The notes under the pieces were generated by a model, which did not search any database, had not been told where the DNA came from, and saw nothing but the letters and a program-made list of their open reading frames with translations. 64,000 bases of DNA. Origin: Candidatus Kapaibacterium sp. GTDB taxonomy: Bacteria; Bacteroidota; Ignavibacteria; Palsa-1295. Of this stretch, positions 41,196 to 54,340 are shown one piece after another. The DNA lies in NCBI GenBank assembly GCA_038322815.1, contig JBBQGG010000007.1, positions 1,218 through 65,217 of the forward strand, read 5' to 3'. The translations under genes were made by a program, and so were the position numbers. How positions within the stretch are numbered: position 1 is the stretch's first letter; each line of letters starts with the position of its first letter.

Positions 41196-43328
41196 ATGAC
41201 TCTAAAAACCGGCATCTTTATCATCGTGCTTCTGGTCGCCTTTGGCGGTATTATTTATAATAGCCGCAGGCTGCTGGATTTTTTGCGTGTGGGCAAGTGG
41301 GTCAATCGCTTCGATAATATCCCCGAGCGGCTGCGGCGGACCTTTGTTATTGCTATCGGGCAATCGAAGATCATGCGCGATCCGGTTGCAGGTCCTATCC
41401 ATGCATTCATCTTCTGGGGATTTCTCGTTCTCGTTTTTGCTGTGATCGAATCCATCGGCGAAGGACTTCTCGGACGCTTCTCTCTTTCATTCCTTGGCGG
41501 GCTGTATTCGGTCATTACCGTATCTCAGGAAATTTTTATCGCTCTCATTATCGTATCGGTTTTTATTGCTCTCTGGCGTCGTCTGGTTTCGAAGGTCAAG
41601 CGCTTACAAGGCGATGAACATGAGAAAAAAGATGCGCAGCTTATTTTATATACCATCACGCTGATCGTCGTTGCGCTGTTGATAACCAATGCAACGCGCA
41701 TTGCAACAGGAGGAATTTATCCGCATGAAGTTCGTCCGCTTGCAAGCTGGCTTGCGGGTTTTATGTGCCCATGCGATAAGACTCTCGTTTGGTATGAAGG
41801 ATTCTGGTGGGTGCATATCGTTGCCGTGCTTGGCTTCATGAATTACCTGCCGTATTCGAAACATCTGCATGTGATGACAAGCATTCCGAATGTGTATTTA
41901 TCCGACTTAAAAAAGAAAAATTATCTTAAGCCGATCAACTTCGAAGATGAAACACTCTCGCAATATGGTGCGAAAGATATTGAGGACCTGACATGGAAGC
42001 AATTGCTCGATGGCGATACATGTACGCATTGCGGAAGATGCACATCGGTTTGTCCGGCGAATATCACAGGCAAGGTTCTTGATCCAAGATATATCATTAT
42101 TGCTACGCATCAAAGGATGCTGGATAAAGCTCCGTATAAAATTGCTGAAGGCGCGTACGGATTTGAATCATGGGAAGATGCGATCGCAGGGAAGCCGGGT
42201 ATTACGAACCACGAACCACAAACCACGAATCACGAAACCGCCGGTACGCTTTTAGGAATGAAAGCGAACCTGACGCAGGAAGAAGTATCAAATAAAAACT
42301 TCATCGGCGACTATATTCCTCAAGAAATGCTCTGGCAATGCACAACTTGCCAGGCATGTATGACAGAATGTCCCGTGATGATCGAGCATGTTGATGAGAT
42401 CGTCGATCTGCGCCGCAACTTAGTAATGATGGAAGCAAGCTTTCCGCCTGAATTGCAATCCGCATTCAGTTCTATGGAAAATAATTATTCGCCGTGGGCA
42501 TTCTCGCCAAGTGAGCGCGCCGACTGGTCGCATGGGATGGGAATTGAGACAATGGCGGAATACACGTCGACAGTTAACAGTAAACAGTTGACAGAGAAAG
42601 AAGATGTGATTCTCTTTTGGGTAGGATGTGCGGGATCTTTCGATGCTCGTGCGAAAAGCATTACGAAAGCATTTGCCGAGCTTATGCAAATTGCGAAGAT
42701 CAATTTCAAAATTCTCGGTACGGAAGAAAAATGCACCGGCGATCCGGCTCGCAGAATGGGAAATGAATACCTGGCTCAGACGTTGATCAAAGATAACATC
42801 GAAACGCTGAACCGTTACAATATTAAGAAGATCGTTACGACCTGTCCGCATTGCTTCAATGCCATCAAGAATGAATGGGGAGATTTTGGCGGCAATTATG
42901 ACGTCGTGCATCATACAGAATATGTGAACGAACTTCTTGCAAGCGGAAGTCTTGTGATAACCAAAGATCTCGAAGAACGAGTGACGTATCATGATTCCTG
43001 CTACCTCGGAAGATCAAATAATATTTACGATGCTCCGCGAGCAACGCTTGAATCCATTCCGGGACTTGAGATCATCGAAATGGATCGCAGTAAATCCAAA
43101 GGTCTCTGCTGCGGCGCCGGCGGCGGACAGATGTGGATGGAAGAAACGCAAGGCAAACGCATCAACATCGAACGCACCGAAGAAGCACTTGCAACTGAAG
43201 CAAATACTATCGCTTCAGCATGCCCATTCTGTATGACAATGATGACCGATGGTGTCAAAACAAAAGAGCAATCAGAAAATGTGCGAGTGCGGGATATTGC
43301 AGAGATATTGCTGGAGGTGGTGAGGTAA
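41196..43328 (+). CDS. membrane-bound HdrDE-like (Fe-S)-binding oxidoreductase: NarI/HdrE-like heme-b TM domain fused to an HdrD-like domain with two [4Fe-4S] motifs and two CCG motifs
   Basis: N-terminal ~250 aa with 5-6 TM helices and conserved His. Then CTHCGRCTSVCP and CTTCQACMTECP ferredoxin motifs. Then CCG-type cysteine clusters (CPHCFN, CCGAGGG, ACPFC). Confidence 0.8.
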   Translation: MTLKTGIFIIVLLVAFGGIIYNSRRLLDFLRVGKWVNRFDNIPERLRRTFVIAIGQSKIMRDPVAGPIHAFIFWGFLVLVFAVIESIGEGLLGRFSLSFLGGLYSVITVSQEIFIALIIVSVFIALWRRLVSKVKRLQGDEHEKKDAQLILYTITLIVVALLITNATRIATGGIYPHEVRPLASWLAGFMCPCDKTLVWYEGFWWVHIVAVLGFMNYLPYSKHLHVMTSIPNVYLSDLKKKNYLKPINFEDETLSQYGAKDIEDLTWKQLLDGDTCTHCGRCTSVCPANITGKVLDPRYIIIATHQRMLDKAPYKIAEGAYGFESWEDAIAGKPGITNHEPQTTNHETAGTLLGMKANLTQEEVSNKNFIGDYIPQEMLWQCTTCQACMTECPVMIEHVDEIVDLRRNLVMMEASFPPELQSAFSSMENNYSPWAFSPSERADWSHGMGIETMAEYTSTVNSKQLTEKEDVILFWVGCAGSFDARAKSITKAFAELMQIAKINFKILGTEEKCTGDPARRMGNEYLAQTLIKDNIETLNRYNIKKIVTTCPHCFNAIKNEWGDFGGNYDVVHHTEYVNELLASGSLVITKDLEERVTYHDSCYLGRSNNIYDAPRATLESIPGLEIIEMDRSKSKGLCCGAGGGQMWMEETQGKRINIERTEEALATEANTIASACPFCMTMMTDGVKTKEQSENVRVRDIAEILLEVVR
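42204..42239 (+). repeat. imperfect heptamer tandem repeat (ACGAACC x5) inside the HdrDE-like CDS
   Basis: ACGAACCACGAACCACAAACCACGAATCACGAAACC encodes TNHEPQTTNHET. Confidence 0.6.
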
Positions 43329-48254: not shown

Positions 48255-48299
48255 TTAAGAATTAAGAACTAAGAACTAAGCACTCAAAAATAAGAACTA
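48255..48299. repeat. heptamer tandem repeat (TAAGAAC-like x5-6) upstream of the M42 peptidase gene
   Basis: ATTAAGAATTAAGAACTAAGAACTAAGCACTCAAAAATAAGAACTAC. Confidence 0.65.
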
Positions 48300-49390: not shown

Positions 49391-50713
49391 ATGAAGGATG
49401 CAGGTAAAAGTAAAGACGAATTAGATAAACTTCGGAAACTCAGTACAGAAATAGATAACTTGGAAAGCCCATACAAAGCAATTGTCTCAGTTATGGTTTT
49501 GCGTGAAGGCTGGGATGTATAGAACGTAACTTCAATTGTCGGCTTGCGCCCTTTTGGTGCGGATAGTAAAATCCTTCCGGAGCAGACGGTAGGCAGAGGA
49601 CTCAGATTAATGTTTCGTGGTTCAGGTGTTCAGGAAAAAGTCAGCGTAGTCGGTACTGCTGCTTTTATTGAATTCGTCGAAGGCATTAAGAAAGAAGGCG
49701 TTGAAATAGATTATGCTCCTATGGGACCGGGTACGACCGGCAAAACTCCATTGATTATCGAAGTTGATAGAGAGAATAAGAAAAAGAATATTGATGCACT
49801 CGATATTAAATTACCAATTCTGCAAGCCCGCATTGCACGAGATTACAAAAATCTTCATGAGCTAAATGTGGCCAACTTCAATTTCCAACCTGCAAAGATT
49901 ATTAGCTTTTCTGAAGCACAGCAGCGGGACATTGTATTCCGAGAAATTGTCGATGGCGAAATAAGTCATACAACACAAATGGATGGAAATCTCGAAATCA
50001 GCCCACAAAATGTTATCGGCTTCTTTGCACAAAATATAAGCCGCGAGCTTCGTCTAGTCGGTGCGAACGATGTACTTTTCGGCAAAGTGAAGCAATTCAT
50101 TACCGGACATTTGTTCGGAAAAGAAGTTGAAATCGCTGATCCAAATATCCTTCGGAATTTATCTGAGTCAGTTACTAAATCCCGGATATATGAAACGTTC
50201 AAAGGTGAGATTAATAAGTTAACCGTTCGGGATTCAGGCACCACGCGCATTTCTTCACACATAAAGTTAAGCGAGGCAAGACCTGTAGTAGTCAACGATC
50301 AGCCGGTTCTCTACCCGAAGCGATCAATTTTTAATAAAGTAGTTGGCAATAATCTTGAACTTGATTTTGCAAGCTTTCTCGATGATGCAAAAGATATTCT
50401 TTCTTTCGCTCGTAACAGGCAACGAGATGGTTTAAGTATTGAATATCAGCCATCGTCAGGTGGTATAGCAACCTATGTGCCTGACTATATCGTAAAAGAA
50501 CGCGATGATTCTATCTGGATAATAGAGACGAAGGGCAGAGAAGATATTGAAGATCCCCGCAAAATTGCCCGACTTCAGGATTGGTGCAAGGATGCAACTG
50601 CGCATGACGGGAAGATAAAGTACCAGGCAATGTTCGTACGGGAAGAGGATTTCAAGAAGTACCAGCCTACGAAGTTTTCGCAGGCGAACGAGTTATTCGT
50701 CAAAAAGAAATAA
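49391..50713 (+). pseudogene. 3' remnant of a type III restriction endonuclease Res subunit gene (helicase motifs V-VI plus C-terminal PD-(D/E)xK nuclease), with an in-frame TAG
   Basis: The frame opens immediately after the M42 stop. ...AIVSVMVLREGWDV*NVTSIVGLRPFGADSKILPEQTVGRGLRL matches Res motif V (ALREGWDNPNV) and motif VI (Q.IGRGLRL), with a stop in between. The C-terminal VPDYIV...IWIIETKG is nuclease-like. The N-terminal ~600 aa of a normal Res are absent. Confidence 0.6.
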
Positions 50714-50720
50714 AAACATT

Positions 50721-51047
50721 ATGGCAAAAGAAAAAGCGAGGCTCACTCTTCGTATCAAGCGCAAATGGCTTGAAGAAATCGTCTTCGGGAAGAAGCGGAT
50801 CGAGTGTCGGGACAATACAAAATTTTATGCGCAACGTCTTCTCGAGACAGACGAAGATGGTGATCTAGTGTGCAGAAAGTTTGATGAAGTGTATTTCTAT
50901 TGCCCAATCGGGCAGACGGGTCAGAATCTTATGGACGTCGTACAATACAAAAAGACTGACTGGAACGAGAAGATCAATCAGATGGAAATTTATTTAGGAA
51001 AGGTCATTTCGCATAATCTGCCGACGCCGAAGGTTAAGAAGAAATAA
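50721..51047 (+). CDS. ASCH domain protein
   Basis: 108 aa with the GxKxxExR signature (FGKKRIECR) characteristic of the ASCH/PUA-like fold. Confidence 0.55.
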   Translation: MAKEKARLTLRIKRKWLEEIVFGKKRIECRDNTKFYAQRLLETDEDGDLVCRKFDEVYFYCPIGQTGQNLMDVVQYKKTDWNEKINQMEIYLGKVISHNLPTPKVKKK

Positions 51048-51054
51048 GCGGGTG

Positions 51055-51141
51055 CGCCCACCTCACCCCAGCCCTCTCCTTAGGAAGGAGAGGGAGTTTT
51101 TTTAAATTCCCTCTCCTTTATAAGGAGAGGGTTAGGGTGAG
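51055..51141. repeat. hairpin repeat element (double copy, cruciform-capable) between the ASCH and DUF559 genes
   Basis: CCTCACCCCAGCCCTCTCCTTAggaAGGAGAGGGAG...CCCTCTCCTTTATAAGGAGAGGGttaGGGTGAGG. Two CCCTCTCC/GGAGAGGG hairpins sit inside an outer CCTCACCC/GGGTGAGG inverted repeat. Confidence 0.75.
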
Positions 51142-51155
51142 GTAGAGCCCGAGGG

Positions 51156-51536
51156 TTAGGGTGTGGTAGATCCCAGAAGCTTTTCTTTTGCTACTCGTTC
51201 TATCTCTGTCAGAACATCATCAATTGTGTTTGTCACTTCGGTATCTGTGAATCTGAGAAAAGTTATTTTATATCCTTCGATAATTTTTTGCCGCCATTCG
51301 TCTTTTCTTTTTGCATCTTCGCTATCGTGCGTTGCTCCATCGAGTTCGATGGCAAGTCTTATTTCAGGCGCATAAAAATCGAGGACGAAGCCGCCGACGC
51401 TGTATTGGCGGCGGAATTTTATTCCGGCAATTTGGGAGTTGCGGACACGTCGCCAAATCAGCTTTTCCGAGAAAGTAGAGTCATGCCTGAGCGCGCGGCG
51501 TTTTTCTTTATGCTCGGATTTGTTGTAGAGTTTCAT
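51156..51536 (-). CDS. DUF559 (Vsr-like endonuclease domain) protein
   Basis: 126 aa. The ...GFVLDFYAPEIRLAIELDGATHD...ITFLRF pattern is typical of DUF559. Flanked on both sides by a CCTCACCCCAGCCCTCTCCTTA hairpin repeat. Confidence 0.75.
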   Translation of the reverse strand: MKLYNKSEHKEKRRALRHDSTFSEKLIWRRVRNSQIAGIKFRRQYSVGGFVLDFYAPEIRLAIELDGATHDSEDAKRKDEWRQKIIEGYKITFLRFTDTEVTNTIDDVLTEIERVAKEKLLGSTTP

Positions 51537-51556
51537 GGTGCAAAAATACGAAGAGA

Positions 51557-51592
51557 CCTCACCCCAGCCCTCTCCTTATAAAGGAGAGGGAG
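51557..51592. repeat. hairpin repeat element, copy 2 (between DUF559 and AlbA_2)
   Basis: CCTCACCCCAGCCCTCTCCTTATAAAGGAGAGGGAG. Confidence 0.75.
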
Positions 51593-51601
51593 TTTGAAGC
51601 T

Positions 51602-52078
51602 TTGATTGCCCAAGGAGAAAGCCATGAATTGGAATTCAAAGAGACTGGACGCTGGGATGTACGGCAGGGAATGGTTAGCCCGGTTATGGGGCAGATACTC
51701 GTGAAGACAGTTGCCGGTTTCATGAATTCAGAATCCGGAGGTTCACTCATCATTGGAGTAGATGATTCAGGAATTGCTATTGGTATCGACCGAGACCTTG
51801 CGACATTCGGGAAGAAGCATAATCCAAAAGATGAATTCGAGCAGTACCTTCAAAATCTCATCCTTTCTCGTTGCGGAAAAGAATCTGCGGCATTAGTAAA
51901 GATTATTTTCCACACTACCCAAGGAAAAGAACTCTGTAAAATCGAAGTAAAGCCATCGCTGAAGCAAGTGTATGTTACCGAAGACTCTGTTGAGAAATTT
52001 TATGTCCGCTCAGGCAATACAACGCAAACACTTTCGATGAGTGAAGCACATGAGTATATCCGTCACAGATTCCGGTAA
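51602..52078 (+). CDS. AlbA_2 (Schlafen-like, 'divergent AAA') domain protein
   Basis: ESHELEFKETGRWDV...QILVKTVAGFMNSESGGSLIIGVDDSGIAIGI matches the AlbA_2 core (E.LEFK...LKTI.AFAN..GG.L.IGVDD.G.VVG). Confidence 0.6.
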   Translation: MIAQGESHELEFKETGRWDVRQGMVSPVMGQILVKTVAGFMNSESGGSLIIGVDDSGIAIGIDRDLATFGKKHNPKDEFEQYLQNLILSRCGKESAALVKIIFHTTQGKELCKIEVKPSLKQVYVTEDSVEKFYVRSGNTTQTLSMSEAHEYIRHRFR

Positions 52079-52091
52079 GGAGTTTAGATAA

Positions 52092-52130
52092 CCTCACCCC
52101 AGCCCTCTCCTTATTTTGAAGGAGTGGGAG
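52092..52130. repeat. hairpin repeat element, copy 3 (after AlbA_2; degenerate right arm)
   Basis: CCTCACCCCAGCCCTCTCCTTATTTTGAAGGAGTGGGAG. Confidence 0.7.
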
Positions 52131-52386
52131 TTATCAAGCTTAAAGCGAAAAGCGAAAAGCTAAAATGGGGAATTGAATTCGGTCCACAATTTTATTTTCT
52201 TTCCTTCCAACCCCGACCCCGATTATTATTCTATAAAAATTATATTTCATTGTATCTTAATCTTTTACAAACTTTTTTATTTTTTTTCTGTGAAATTCTT
52301 GGATTTTCTATTTTTATGTTGTATATTAGTTGGTGCTCTGATAGGCACCTATTAAAAATATATATTATTTTGGCATTCTGCCGAAA

Positions 52387-52520
52387 AGTAGTTAGTAGAT
52401 AGTAGTTAGTAGTGAGGAAAAAGAGTCCGGCTACTTACTACTAACTACTAACTACTTACTACTTACTACTTACTACTTACTACTAACTACTTACTACTAA
52501 CTACTATCTACTTACTACTG
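52387..52520. repeat. heptanucleotide microsatellite arranged as an inverted repeat (AGTAGTT x4 | spacer | AACTACT/TACTACT x~13)
   Basis: Left arm AGTAGTTAGTAGATAGTAGTTAGTAGT (52387-52413) is the reverse complement, with one mismatch, of the distal end of the right array (52494-52520). About 90 nt of TACTACT/AACTACT units lie between. Ends 34 nt upstream of ORF 52554. Confidence 0.8.
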
Positions 52521-52553
52521 ACCAGATTTTTTTAACATTACAGGAGAAATACG

Positions 52554-53357
52554 ATGATACCGAAAGACGTGAAAACAGTATATATAAAGAATATTCCAGT
52601 CGCTCACGGTGAGATCAGCGTTGTGCTGGCTGACGATGCGGAAAAATTGATGCGCCATTCTTGCCAAGTTGGAGAACAAATTAAGCGCGCAGGGCTTGGC
52701 GTCCTTCTCATTAATTGCGGAATGAGCGACCGTCGCTTCCGCAATCATGCGCGTGAAGCAACGACAGCACTGGAGGGTCAGCCGTTCGAGCACATGCCCT
52801 ACGCAACCGGAACCGATGCACCCAAAGAGATGCTGATCCATAGTTCGGTCGCCGGCGATCTTATCGGCGAGATGGATCTGCTCAGCGGACTTGTTGCCCA
52901 GTGCGCGATCGGTGTCGTAATAATCGCCGGATGGGAATGGACTTCATCCGGATATCGCCGGAAAGAACGGCTGCTCTATGCCATACGTGAGATGATGAGG
53001 AAGTATGATGTAGCCGTAGTCATTTATGCATCAGCCAAGACGAATTCGCAGCCCGGCAAATGTGACCGCGGCGGAATCGGCAGATTAGCGATGCTTGCCG
53101 TCTCGATCCTGAATTTGGATGCTGCTGATATGTTAGAATCGGTTTCTCCGAAGCCGCTGCCCATCGTTGCAACTAAAAAAGATTGGGAAGATGCCGAGCG
53201 AAGTGCACAATTACTTGGCAGTAAAATCAATGAGTTAGGGGGGGGTCGATGGTCGATCGTCGATAGTCGGGGAATGAGGGCAAAAGGATTGAAGGCGCCG
53301 GTGAAGTCAACATTATTGATGAAACCGAAGATTTTAACCGGGAATCAGGCAGGGTAA
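52554..53357 (+). CDS. hypothetical protein, possibly a degenerate RecA/DnaB-like P-loop fold lacking Walker A
   Basis: 267 aa. Alternating beta-strand-like hydrophobic runs (GVLLINCG, VVIIAGWEW, VAVVIYASAKTNSQ), but no GxxxxGK[ST] motif. Good RBS (AGGAG) upstream. Lies in the island next to the AlbA_2 and DUF559 genes. Confidence 0.35.
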   Translation: MIPKDVKTVYIKNIPVAHGEISVVLADDAEKLMRHSCQVGEQIKRAGLGVLLINCGMSDRRFRNHAREATTALEGQPFEHMPYATGTDAPKEMLIHSSVAGDLIGEMDLLSGLVAQCAIGVVIIAGWEWTSSGYRRKERLLYAIREMMRKYDVAVVIYASAKTNSQPGKCDRGGIGRLAMLAVSILNLDAADMLESVSPKPLPIVATKKDWEDAERSAQLLGSKINELGGGRWSIVDSRGMRAKGLKAPVKSTLLMKPKILTGNQAG

Positions 53358-53360
53358 CGA

Positions 53361-53397
53361 ATGTAAAATGTAAAATATAAAATGTAAAATATAAAAT
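53361..53397. repeat. heptamer tandem repeat (TGTAAAA/TATAAAA x5) upstream of kdsA
   Basis: ATGTAAAATGTAAAATATAAAATGTAAAATATAAAAT. Confidence 0.7.
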
Positions 53398-53479
53398 TGA
53401 ACTTGTTCTTTGAAAATAGTCACACGGAATAATTCAGGCTTCGTTTTTGTTGGCGCATCACTTGAAAAACCAGTAGTTA

Positions 53480-54340
53480 ATGAAAGAAAAGAAGATCGTA
53501 CGAGTCGGATCTGTTGAATGCGGAGCAGATACGCTGTTTTTGATTTCCGGTCCCTGTGTCATCGAAGATGATACAGTGATGAACCGTACGGCAGAAAAGC
53601 TGAAGATGGTATCTGAGCGATTGAATATTCCCGTTATTTTCAAATCATCATTTCAAAAAGATAATCGCAGCTCCGTAAAATTTTATCAGGGACCTGGATT
53701 AGAAAAAGGATTACGCACCCTTGAAAGAATAAAAAATGATTTTGGGTTTGCACTACTGACCGATGTTCACTATCCCGAACAAGTAAACGCTGCTGCCGAT
53801 GTTGTTGATGTTATTCAGATCCCAGCATATCTTTGTATGCAGACAACACTTACCGTCGAATGCGCGAAGACGATGAAAGTAGTAAATATCAAGCATGGGC
53901 AGTTCATTGCGCCGGAGATGATGATCAAGCCCATCGAAAAATGCTTGGAATCCGGCAACGATCAGATCATTCTTACTGAACGCGGATATGCATTCGGTTA
54001 TAACGATCTTGTTGTTGATCCCCGGAGTTTTTATCATTTGAATAAAACAGGGTATCCTGTTGTTTTTGATATCACCCATTCCATCCGCAAATATGGTATT
54101 CCGAGTTCGGATCCGCGCGGAGGATCAAAAGAATTTTTAGATACGATCGGGCGCGCAGGTGTTGCAGCAGGAGTTGACGGCATATTTGTTGAAACACATC
54201 CTGAACCGGAGAAAGCATTATGCGATGCAGCAAGCCAGATGTGCGTTTATGATCTCGAAGAATTTCTCTTGCCTCTTATTGATCTGCACGAGACCGAAGT
54301 AAAATACAGAAAAAAGACCCACCATGGAGTTATATCTTGA
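53480..54340 (+). CDS. kdsA: 3-deoxy-8-phosphooctulonate synthase
   Basis: 286 aa with the KdsA pattern (LFLISGPCVIE...VIFKSSFQKDNRSS...HYPEQ). DAHP-synthase-like TIM barrel. Confidence 0.9.
   Translation: MKEKKIVRVGSVECGADTLFLISGPCVIEDDTVMNRTAEKLKMVSERLNIPVIFKSSFQKDNRSSVKFYQGPGLEKGLRTLERIKNDFGFALLTDVHYPEQVNAAADVVDVIQIPAYLCMQTTLTVECAKTMKVVNIKHGQFIAPEMMIKPIEKCLESGNDQIILTERGYAFGYNDLVVDPRSFYHLNKTGYPVVFDITHSIRKYGIPSSDPRGGSKEFLDTIGRAGVAAGVDGIFVETHPEPEKALCDAASQMCVYDLEEFLLPLIDLHETEVKYRKKTHHGVIS

Follow-up and report, generated by a model that had tools for sequence, protein, structure and literature searches.

Can a long inverted repeat that is built wholly from tandem heptanucleotides, and that lies immediately upstream of a gene, switch or tune that gene, or is its role a different one, or none at all? 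The question is raised by positions 52387–52519 of a 64,000-nucleotide stretch of Candidatus Kapaibacterium sp. (GenBank assembly GCA_038322815.1, contig JBBQGG010000007.1), the whole of which is referred to here as the window. Two complementary arrays of 7-nt units lie in the 475-nt intergenic region between a stop codon at 52078 and the ATG at 52554 of an open reading frame (ORF 52554) for a conserved protein. A preliminary description of the locus had taken them for a candidate phase-variable or invertible promoter. The explanation favoured here, with a probability of roughly 0.55, is that they form a heptanucleotide simple sequence repeat (SSR) which was generated by slippage and lies in the transcribed 5′ leader of the gene, where its hairpin would act post-transcriptionally.

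Complementary arrays in a predicted leader

The left arm (52387–52413, forward strand) comprises the C-free units AGTAGTT, AGTAGAT, AGTAGTT and AGTAGT, the reverse complement of units of the right array. It was found by reading the sequence, by a repeat search and by Tandem Repeats Finder (TRF), which calls it AGTAGTT ×3.9 (score 47). A unique spacer of 17 nt (GAGGAAAAAGAGTCCGG, 52414–52430, forward strand), read from the sequence, separates it from the right array (52431–52519, forward strand, 89 bp), in which TRF finds 12.7 G-free copies of CTACTTA (period 7, score 136; CTACTWA overall). The units follow each other in the order T A A T T T T A T A X T, where T is CTACTTA, A is CTACTAA and X is CTACTAT; the longest perfect run, four CTACTTA followed by CTACT, covers 33 nt. 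TRF also scores the right array as 4.2 copies of a 21-nt period (150, against 136 for period 7). This super-period was set aside as a product of the TTA/TAA pattern of the units, its score being barely above that of period 7.

The reverse complement of 52387–52413 (ACTACTAACTACTATCTACTAACTACT) is identical at 26 of 27 positions to 52493–52519 (ACTACTAACTACTATCTACTTACTACT), and these arms enclose 79 nt. A single copy of the rare unit CTACTAT stands at the mirrored position in both arms. The right array is followed, in order, by GACCAGA, T7, AGGAG and ATG, with 34 nt between its end at 52519 and the ATG; the Shine–Dalgarno-like AGGAG (52544–52548, forward strand) was read from the sequence 5 nt before the ATG. 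The geometry given in the preliminary description, namely a left arm of four AGTAGTT units, a run of about 13 units, a 26/27 match to its far end enclosing about 80 nt, and a 34-nt gap after the array, was borne out throughout. An inverted-repeat search extends the match to 30 nt at 93% (52387–52416 with 52490–52519). It also returns about ten further pairing registers for the left arm, including one with the near end of the right array (27 nt, 93%), so that pairing with the far end is not unique.

The repeats and their complementarity are not due to chance. The pattern CTACTWACTACTWA, with at most one mismatch, has 15 matches in the window, all of them at this site, against 0.03 expected, and shuffled sequence yields no such heptamer arrays. 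The sole ORF that overlaps the structure (52124–52402) is a 92-aa low-complexity reading which was judged spurious.

A Bacteroidota-type promoter is predicted from its motif, TTG-N20-TATATTAG, at 52299–52329 (forward strand), 57 nt upstream of the left arm. It shares its layout, TTG-N20-TATATT(T/A)G, with TTG-N20-TATATTTG, found 101–199 nt upstream of the ATG of homologous genes at three loci (L010, L011 and L018) of the twenty described below. In L011 and L018, as in the window, the motif lies upstream of heptamer arrays, and the match at 52299–52329 is the sole intergenic one in the window. The position of the candidate promoter upstream of the arms would make the repeats transcribed leader and not promoter, and the whole structure would then lie within a 5′ leader of about 218 nt. 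A consensus scan found no sigma-70 promoter in or after the right array. The suggestion that the repeats are themselves a promoter is therefore not supported: a promoter may well be present in the intergenic region, though it is predicted upstream of the repeats, and the right array, at 89 bp, cannot be the spacer of a −35/−10 or −33/−7 promoter. Phase variation through promoter spacing was rejected for the same reason, the array being of this length and downstream of the candidate promoter. Conservation of the motif 101–199 nt from family genes implies long structured leaders for the family. An extended form, (GGGCATC)TTGCA-N18-TATATTTG, is present in three different genomes (L010 3120–3157, L011 2679–2716 and L018 2737–2774).

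The sequences just before the ATG of family members are uniformly G-poor and C/A-rich. At six homologous loci (L004, L011, L016, L017, L018 and L019) G-free, C/A-rich heptamer arrays abut the ATG, and the units of such leader arrays include CCACTAA, CCTACAA, AACTATC and ATTTTAC. Another hairpin, GGGCA(C/T)-loop-(G)TGCCCCTAC(G), recurs 30–80 nt upstream of the family ATG and before the G-free stretch; its exact pattern occurs in L007 and L017, and variants were recognised by eye in L004, L010 and L015. It may be a family-specific cis element or a further repeat of the repetitive extragenic palindrome (REP) type. A search of the whole window against Rfam gave no match at gathering thresholds.

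As RNA, 52375–52560 folds with −45.7 kcal/mol (z −5.55), and none of 200 shuffles was as stable. The minimum-energy RNA fold pairs the left arm with the far end of the right array, the DNA fold with the near end. The predicted leader (52336–52575) reaches −57.2 kcal/mol (z −6.2), with a duplex of about 30 bp between left arm and right array as its core, and shuffling the left arm removes 28 kcal/mol of this stability. One feature of the hmw1A leader of Haemophilus influenzae, repeats forming one arm of a long stable RNA hairpin, is reproduced in silico with a stem of 27–30 bp. At the start of the predicted leader a small hairpin, GGTGC-TCTGATA-GGCACC (52332–52349, forward strand), can be drawn, but the leader fold pairs a slightly different stem there, UGAUAG/CUAUUA.

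Slippage was modelled by varying the perfect CTACTTA run to give 8–20 units in total, with equilibrium folding only. The minimum free energy ranges only from −58.5 to −56.4 kcal/mol, and the unpaired probabilities of the Shine–Dalgarno sequence (about 0.58) and the AUG (about 0.50) are unaffected by copy number. Since four units anywhere in the right array suffice as partners for the four of the left arm, the hairpin is buffered against changes in copy number. Neither an on/off nor a graded effect is therefore predicted, and the proposal that copy number tunes expression found no support in this model.

The favoured explanation can be set out as follows. A long G-free array, preceded by a short C-free one made of the complementary unit, both of a heptamer type abundant in the lineage, would have given a leader in which any stretch of four right-array units can serve as partner of the left arm, producing an RNA duplex of 27–30 bp followed by U7, the ribosome-binding site and the AUG. 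In the hmw1A leader, which is likewise built on a heptamer repeat, RNase III cuts a substrate of this kind; by analogy, the hairpin may serve as an RNase III site or other stability or processing element, or with U7 as a weak leader attenuator. Gain or loss of units would then change the size of the loop and not the state of the gene, as long as at least four right-arm units remain.

Heptamer arrays across the lineage and their variability

Heptamer arrays were compared as a class across the window, 64 kb of one genome, and 20 Kapabacteria/Ignavibacteriota loci that encode homologues of ORF 52554 (L002–L021). TRF arrays with a period of 7 account for 10 of 21 in the window (at 734, 8074, 42204, 42570, 48256, 52142, 52387, 52431, 53244 and 53360) and for 18 of 30 in the related loci. 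A scan of the window for exact repeats gave four arrays of period 7 and none of any other period from 5 to 13, with none in shuffles; a tolerant scan gave six of period 7 against none of the other periods from 4 to 12. Since period 7 also dominates in the homologous loci, 52387–52519 is the largest local example of a lineage-wide habit. Arrays of at least three copies are 21-fold denser within 300 nt of family genes (1.67 per kb) than elsewhere (0.079 per kb; binomial p about 3 × 10⁻¹³), an enrichment estimated at about 4-fold when only intergenic DNA is compared. CTACTWA arrays occur at this site only within the window and are absent from the related loci examined. Other units, namely AATGTAA, AGTGGTC, GATAGTT/AACTATC and CCTACAA, recur across genomes beside family members.

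Inverted pairs are also found at other loci. In L018, AATGTAA ×4.4 faces TTTACAT ×3.1 (5899/5968), 60 nt upstream of a Rieske iron-sulfur gene, and the pair folds with −31.4 kcal/mol (z −4.2). In L013 and L019, nested arrays of the form A-B-loop-B′-A′ follow just after the family gene and fold with −109 kcal/mol (z −8). The order within these hairpins (L019 858–1085, L013 372–570) is an AGTGGTC array, a G-rich stretch, a GTTGATA array, the loop, an AACTATC array, a C-rich stretch and the complement of the first array.

Sequencing runs give some indication of variability at the site. Two Logan contigs of run SRR24807096, one stopping at 52463 and the other starting at 52479, have no mismatch to the window and independently confirm both ends of the array; they break inside it, so that the total copy number is that of one short-read assembly. 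Further look-ups for contigs spanning the right array returned contigs which all stop inside it, and the three contigs that enter the array have the orientation of the window (3/3). A contig of run SRR35365629 (L022) follows the window without a difference for 1,379 nt (51078–52456) and then departs from it at 52457 and 52464, 7 nt apart and within its last 8 nt, before ending inside the array. Its units 4 and 5 are CTACTAA where the window has CTACTTA (T-A-A-A-A against T-A-A-T-T). The right array, whose composition thus differs between sequencing runs, is the sole polymorphic site in 1.39 kb. Since the 31-mer with the first difference includes part of the unique spacer GAGGAAAAAGAGTCCGG, a path artefact inside the repeat can be discounted. 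Most simply, the allele would be read as a gain of CTACTAA units, and variability of the slippage type is plausible on this sequence comparison. Among homologues with 74–88% amino-acid identity the leader arrays are quite different or missing, indicating rapid turnover of arrays, and P0004 (L021), the next-closest homologue after P0002 (62% identity), has no heptamer array upstream. Of the idea that slippage in copy number switches the gene, the slippage has some support, from one allele difference with identical flanks, whereas the folding model predicts no switch.

On its own the locus is one more intergenic heptamer repeat and matters little. The groups chiefly associated with richness in heptamer repeats are cyanobacteria, Xanthomonas, Burkholderia, Beggiatoaceae and some few Bacteroidetes; to these are now added Kapabacteria/Ignavibacteriota-type genomes, a lineage for which the literature searched contained no paper on the subject. 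In repeat-rich bacteria, heptamers are the most abundant class of long SSR; in Beggiatoaceae, Cyanobacteria and some Bacteroidetes they have been described from sites upstream of start codons, and there too contigs terminate within the repeats (PMC4679880). Xanthomonas carries 70–75 convergent pairs of heptamer arrays with stem-loop potential (PMC4692102).

The structure belongs to the intergenic heptanucleotide repeats, the long SSRs (LSSRs) or short tandemly repeated repetitive (STRR) sequences exemplified by cyanobacterial STRRs, GGGAATC in Xanthomonas, GGGGAYT in Nostoc, and TAACTGA in Beggiatoaceae, Cyanobacteria and Bacteroidetes. It shares with them tandem 7-nt units that are mostly intergenic, an excess of period 7, a frequent position directly upstream of start codons, variation of length and sequence between close relatives, and assemblies that break within arrays; with the Xanthomonas arrays it also shares inverted pairs able to form stem-loops. 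It differs in that CTACTWA is specific to one locus among the window and related loci and is not a single heptamer dispersed through the genome, so that the strict sense of STRR, one heptamer family at many loci, does not apply within this sample. It differs further in lying in a predicted leader, with the partner arm built from the same repeat. As CTACTWA contains no G, the array cannot form a G-quadruplex.

The closest functional analogue, as far as the analogy carries, appears to be the hmw1A leader. There the heptamer repeat is transcribed in the 5′ untranslated region (UTR) and forms a long hairpin that is cut by RNase III; about ten repeats form an arm, and both expression and changes in repeat number depend on the hairpin (PMC12721329). 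The (ATCTTTC)n repeats of hmw1A/hmw2A likewise lie between promoter, here predicted, and start codon, and form hairpins. In hmw1A, however, the repeats pair with a G-rich region that is not itself repetitive, and a higher copy number lowers expression, whereas the partner here is an inverted copy of the same repeat and copy number is predicted to leave the stem unaffected. This contrast between a self-complementary array pair and the copy-number-dependent hmw1A hairpin is testable. In addition, the gene here is not an adhesin. Repetitive extragenic palindromes and bacterial interspersed mosaic elements (BIMEs) are also intergenic and hairpin-forming between co-oriented genes, and a true REP-like CTCACCCCAGCCCTCTCC element lies 300 nt upstream; the present feature differs in being made of tandem heptamers whose sequence is unique to the locus and not dispersed.

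Alternative explanations

Several observations weigh against the favoured explanation. A purely neutral origin fits all of the sequence data equally well. Of some 50 sampled arrays about 40 lack an inverted partner within 250 nt, which means that the class as a whole is not characterised by hairpin formation. The SRR35365629 contig ends 8 nt beyond its identical flank, and two substitutions are therefore possible instead of an insertion of units. A third run (SRR19962015) shows no difference in the TAAGAAC array at 48256, and the orthologous loci L013 and L019 have identical arm copy numbers, their indels (39 and 21 nt) being confined to the spacers; these identities mean that general hypermutability is not demonstrated. 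As to the promoter, 3.8% of shuffles of the intergenic region yield a match to the motif, of which the candidate is itself a one-mismatch match. No other gene in the window has the composite motif upstream of it, and the exact Bacteroidota −7 box, TAnnTTTG, is absent from the intergenic region upstream of 52554; TAnnTTTG is enriched in intergenic DNA of the window overall.

Neutrality is the strongest competitor, a real possibility to which we nevertheless give appreciably less credence. In this case a slippage bias of the lineage would seed heptamers, the inverted arm would have arisen by template-switch duplication, and there would be no effect on the gene. The unit sequences are locus-specific and the arrays come and go among homologues of 74–88% identity, as would be expected; they are also found beside unrelated housekeeping genes (an M42 peptidase, the Rieske gene and kdsA) and extend into non-conserved C-terminal tails, and no function is assignable to the heptamer arrays of Xanthomonas and Nostoc (PMC4692102). 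Set against this, the G-poor sequences before the family ATGs suggest constraint towards an unstructured leader, inverted pairs are present at four independent loci, and an mRNA is unlikely to be unaffected by a 30-bp duplex in its leader.

A phase-variable or tunable contingency locus, in which slipped-strand gain or loss of units would reversibly and heritably change expression of ORF 52554, is an unlikely explanation. The 33-nt perfect run, the difference between two runs inside the array next to 1,379 identical flanking nucleotides, the position of the array between predicted promoter and ribosome-binding site, and the hmw1A precedent with the same unit length and a hairpin all argue for it. 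Modelled leaders of 8–20 units, however, have the same hairpin energy and the same accessibility of the Shine–Dalgarno sequence and AUG, and variant units interrupt the array. Moreover, the product has a predicted RecA-like fold and looks cytoplasmic, with no surface or restriction-modification signature, and such a class is not usually phase-variable.

The tract that follows the hairpin raises the question of a terminator or insulator, which would stop read-through from the remnants of defence genes upstream or attenuate ORF 52554. This seems improbable. A UCUG/CAGA extension at the base of the stem in the RNA fold does place the T7 tract (52528–52534, forward strand) directly after the hairpin, and the intergenic region is long, at 475 nt. 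The tract was not called as a canonical terminator, however, and a consensus scan of 51900–53600 found none; the stem, rich in A and U, has a weak base of 4 bp beyond an internal loop, and the loop has 73 nt. The upstream gene already has a REP-type hairpin (52091–52130), the inverted array pairs in L018 and L019 have no U tract after them, and canonical terminators are rare in the window (3 of 62 genes).

Two bolder readings, linked to each other, are likewise given little weight. By analogy with RAYT transposases (REP-associated tyrosine transposases) and REP elements, the arrays could be functionally coupled to the RecA/DnaB-fold family of ORF 52554, whose members would act on or propagate repeat hairpins; the density of arrays near family genes, the scattering of these multi-copy genes beside unrelated housekeeping genes and their frequent place at contig breaks are in line with such coupling. 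Alternatively, the leader could be a variable, RNase III-dependent 5′ UTR of the hmw1A type in a free-living Bacteroidota/Ignavibacteriota bacterium. If the repeat does tune expression through RNA processing, repeat-based variation would not be confined to host-adapted pathogens.

It is highly improbable that the neighbouring RecA/DnaB-fold protein binds the array as an iteron- or operator-like site whose 21-bp super-period would match two turns of the helix. The slightly higher TRF score for period 21, an AT-rich stretch upstream and the 21-fold density of heptamer arrays within 300 nt of family genes are compatible with such a site. Yet the units differ fully between paralogues, many of which have no array, and arrays also lie beside unrelated genes; much of the enrichment reflects intergenic versus coding DNA (hence the estimate of about 4-fold after correction). 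The 17–22-bp direct repeats of iterons are not seen, the basic unit being 7 nt. The neighbours are chromosomal housekeeping genes, and the protein has no relatives in plasmid and phage collections, which weakens the idea of an iteron and its Rep protein.

Finally, an invertible promoter, in which recombination between the arms would flip a promoter-bearing segment as in E. coli fimS or the Bacteroides invertons, can be rejected: the 27–30-bp inverted repeats upstream of a gene are the likeness, with nothing else in favour, whereas the segment between the arms (52414–52492) is the 17-nt spacer plus G-free repeats with no promoter-like site, its inversion would regenerate the same structure with arm lengths swapped, the arms (17–79 nt apart) are degenerate tandem repeats with many registers and not defined recombinase sites, and a Pfam search covering 18 ORFs (43.9–61.2 kb) detected neither a tyrosine or serine recombinase nor any integrase, invertase or transposase, with none inside 8 kb. 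With this the inversion between arms that had been proposed at the outset falls away.

Neighbouring genes and other repeats

ORF 52554 (52554–53357, forward strand) encodes a protein of 267 aa whose conserved core ends near residue 230. Its 65 homologues all come from Kapabacteria/Ignavibacteriota-type metagenome assemblies, and their alignment has 18 invariant columns and an invariant GWEW..RRKERL motif. Searches of Pfam, NCBIfam and PADLOC gave no match for the protein, and a profile search of Protein Data Bank (PDB) sequences gave nothing below E = 0.1. Its AlphaFold2 model (predicted local distance difference test, pLDDT, 67.5) has DnaB, KaiC and RadA as top Foldseek matches, at template modelling (TM) scores of about 0.4, suggesting with modest confidence a RecA/DnaB-C/KaiC-like fold that lacks a canonical Walker A motif. 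A genome carries two or three family genes, frequently at the ends of contigs, and these lie upstream of, and co-oriented with, unrelated housekeeping genes: kdsA in the window and gyrA, Tricorn protease or an EF-G-like gene elsewhere.

The upstream gene (51602–52078) encodes a 158-aa protein with an AlbA_2 (Schlafen-type) domain. Just after its stop codon lies a REP-like, terminator-like hairpin, CCTCACCCCAGCCCTCTCCTT..AAGGAGTGGGAG (52091–52130, forward strand). The REP core CTCACCCCAGCCCTCTCC has four copies in the window, against none expected, all within 51062–52110. As CTCACCCCAGCCCTCTCC..GGAGAGGG, the element is found at 51062–51079, 51124–51141 (reverse strand), 51558–51575 and 52093–52110, flanking each small gene within 1.1 kb; the copy at 51062 forms a hairpin followed by T7 and is terminator-like. 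Similar REP elements lie upstream of homologues in L005, L006, L008 and L009. Between the REP-like hairpin and the left arm, an AAAGCGA ×3.4 array was called by TRF (52142–52165, forward strand), and is followed by the strongly A+T-rich stretch that contains the promoter candidate.

Further upstream, 49391–52078 looks from its gene content like a decayed defence or restriction region. ORF 49544–50713 is a C-terminal fragment with a weak match to a type III restriction enzyme, no Pfam match and a 43-aa ORF before it; a weak ASCH-domain ORF and, on the minus strand, a DUF559 endonuclease-like gene are also present. The base composition of this region is not distinct from that of the rest of the window.

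Two further arrays lie at the other end of ORF 52554. GGTCGAT ×3.7 (53244–53269, forward strand) is inside its variable C-terminal tail, which one-unit slippage in this array would frameshift. AATGTAA ×5.4 (53360–53397, forward strand) begins 3 nt after the stop codon and places a TAA in each of the three frames; its unit is also found after the homologue in L006 and flanking genes in L018. These two arrays, and those at L013 29–535 and L019 840–1085, run into the non-conserved C-terminal tails of family ORFs, one of which contains SGQLPVASDQ, a translated AGTGGTC array. The gene calls in these genomes therefore probably carry artificial C-terminal tails, which, together with broken short-read assemblies, are a practical consequence of such arrays.

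Elsewhere in the window, an imperfect TAAGAAC ×6.3 array (48256–48299) stops 5 nt short of the ATG of an M42 aminopeptidase gene, which has no Shine–Dalgarno sequence there. Two others, ACGAACC ×4.7 (42204–42236) and ACAGTTA ×3.6 (42570–42594), lie inside a 710-aa ORF whose translation is rich in cysteine motifs and resembles an Fe-S/CCG-type membrane oxidoreductase. The ACGAACC array encodes a TNHEPQTTNHET linker, and is thus kept in frame as a 21-nt repeat.

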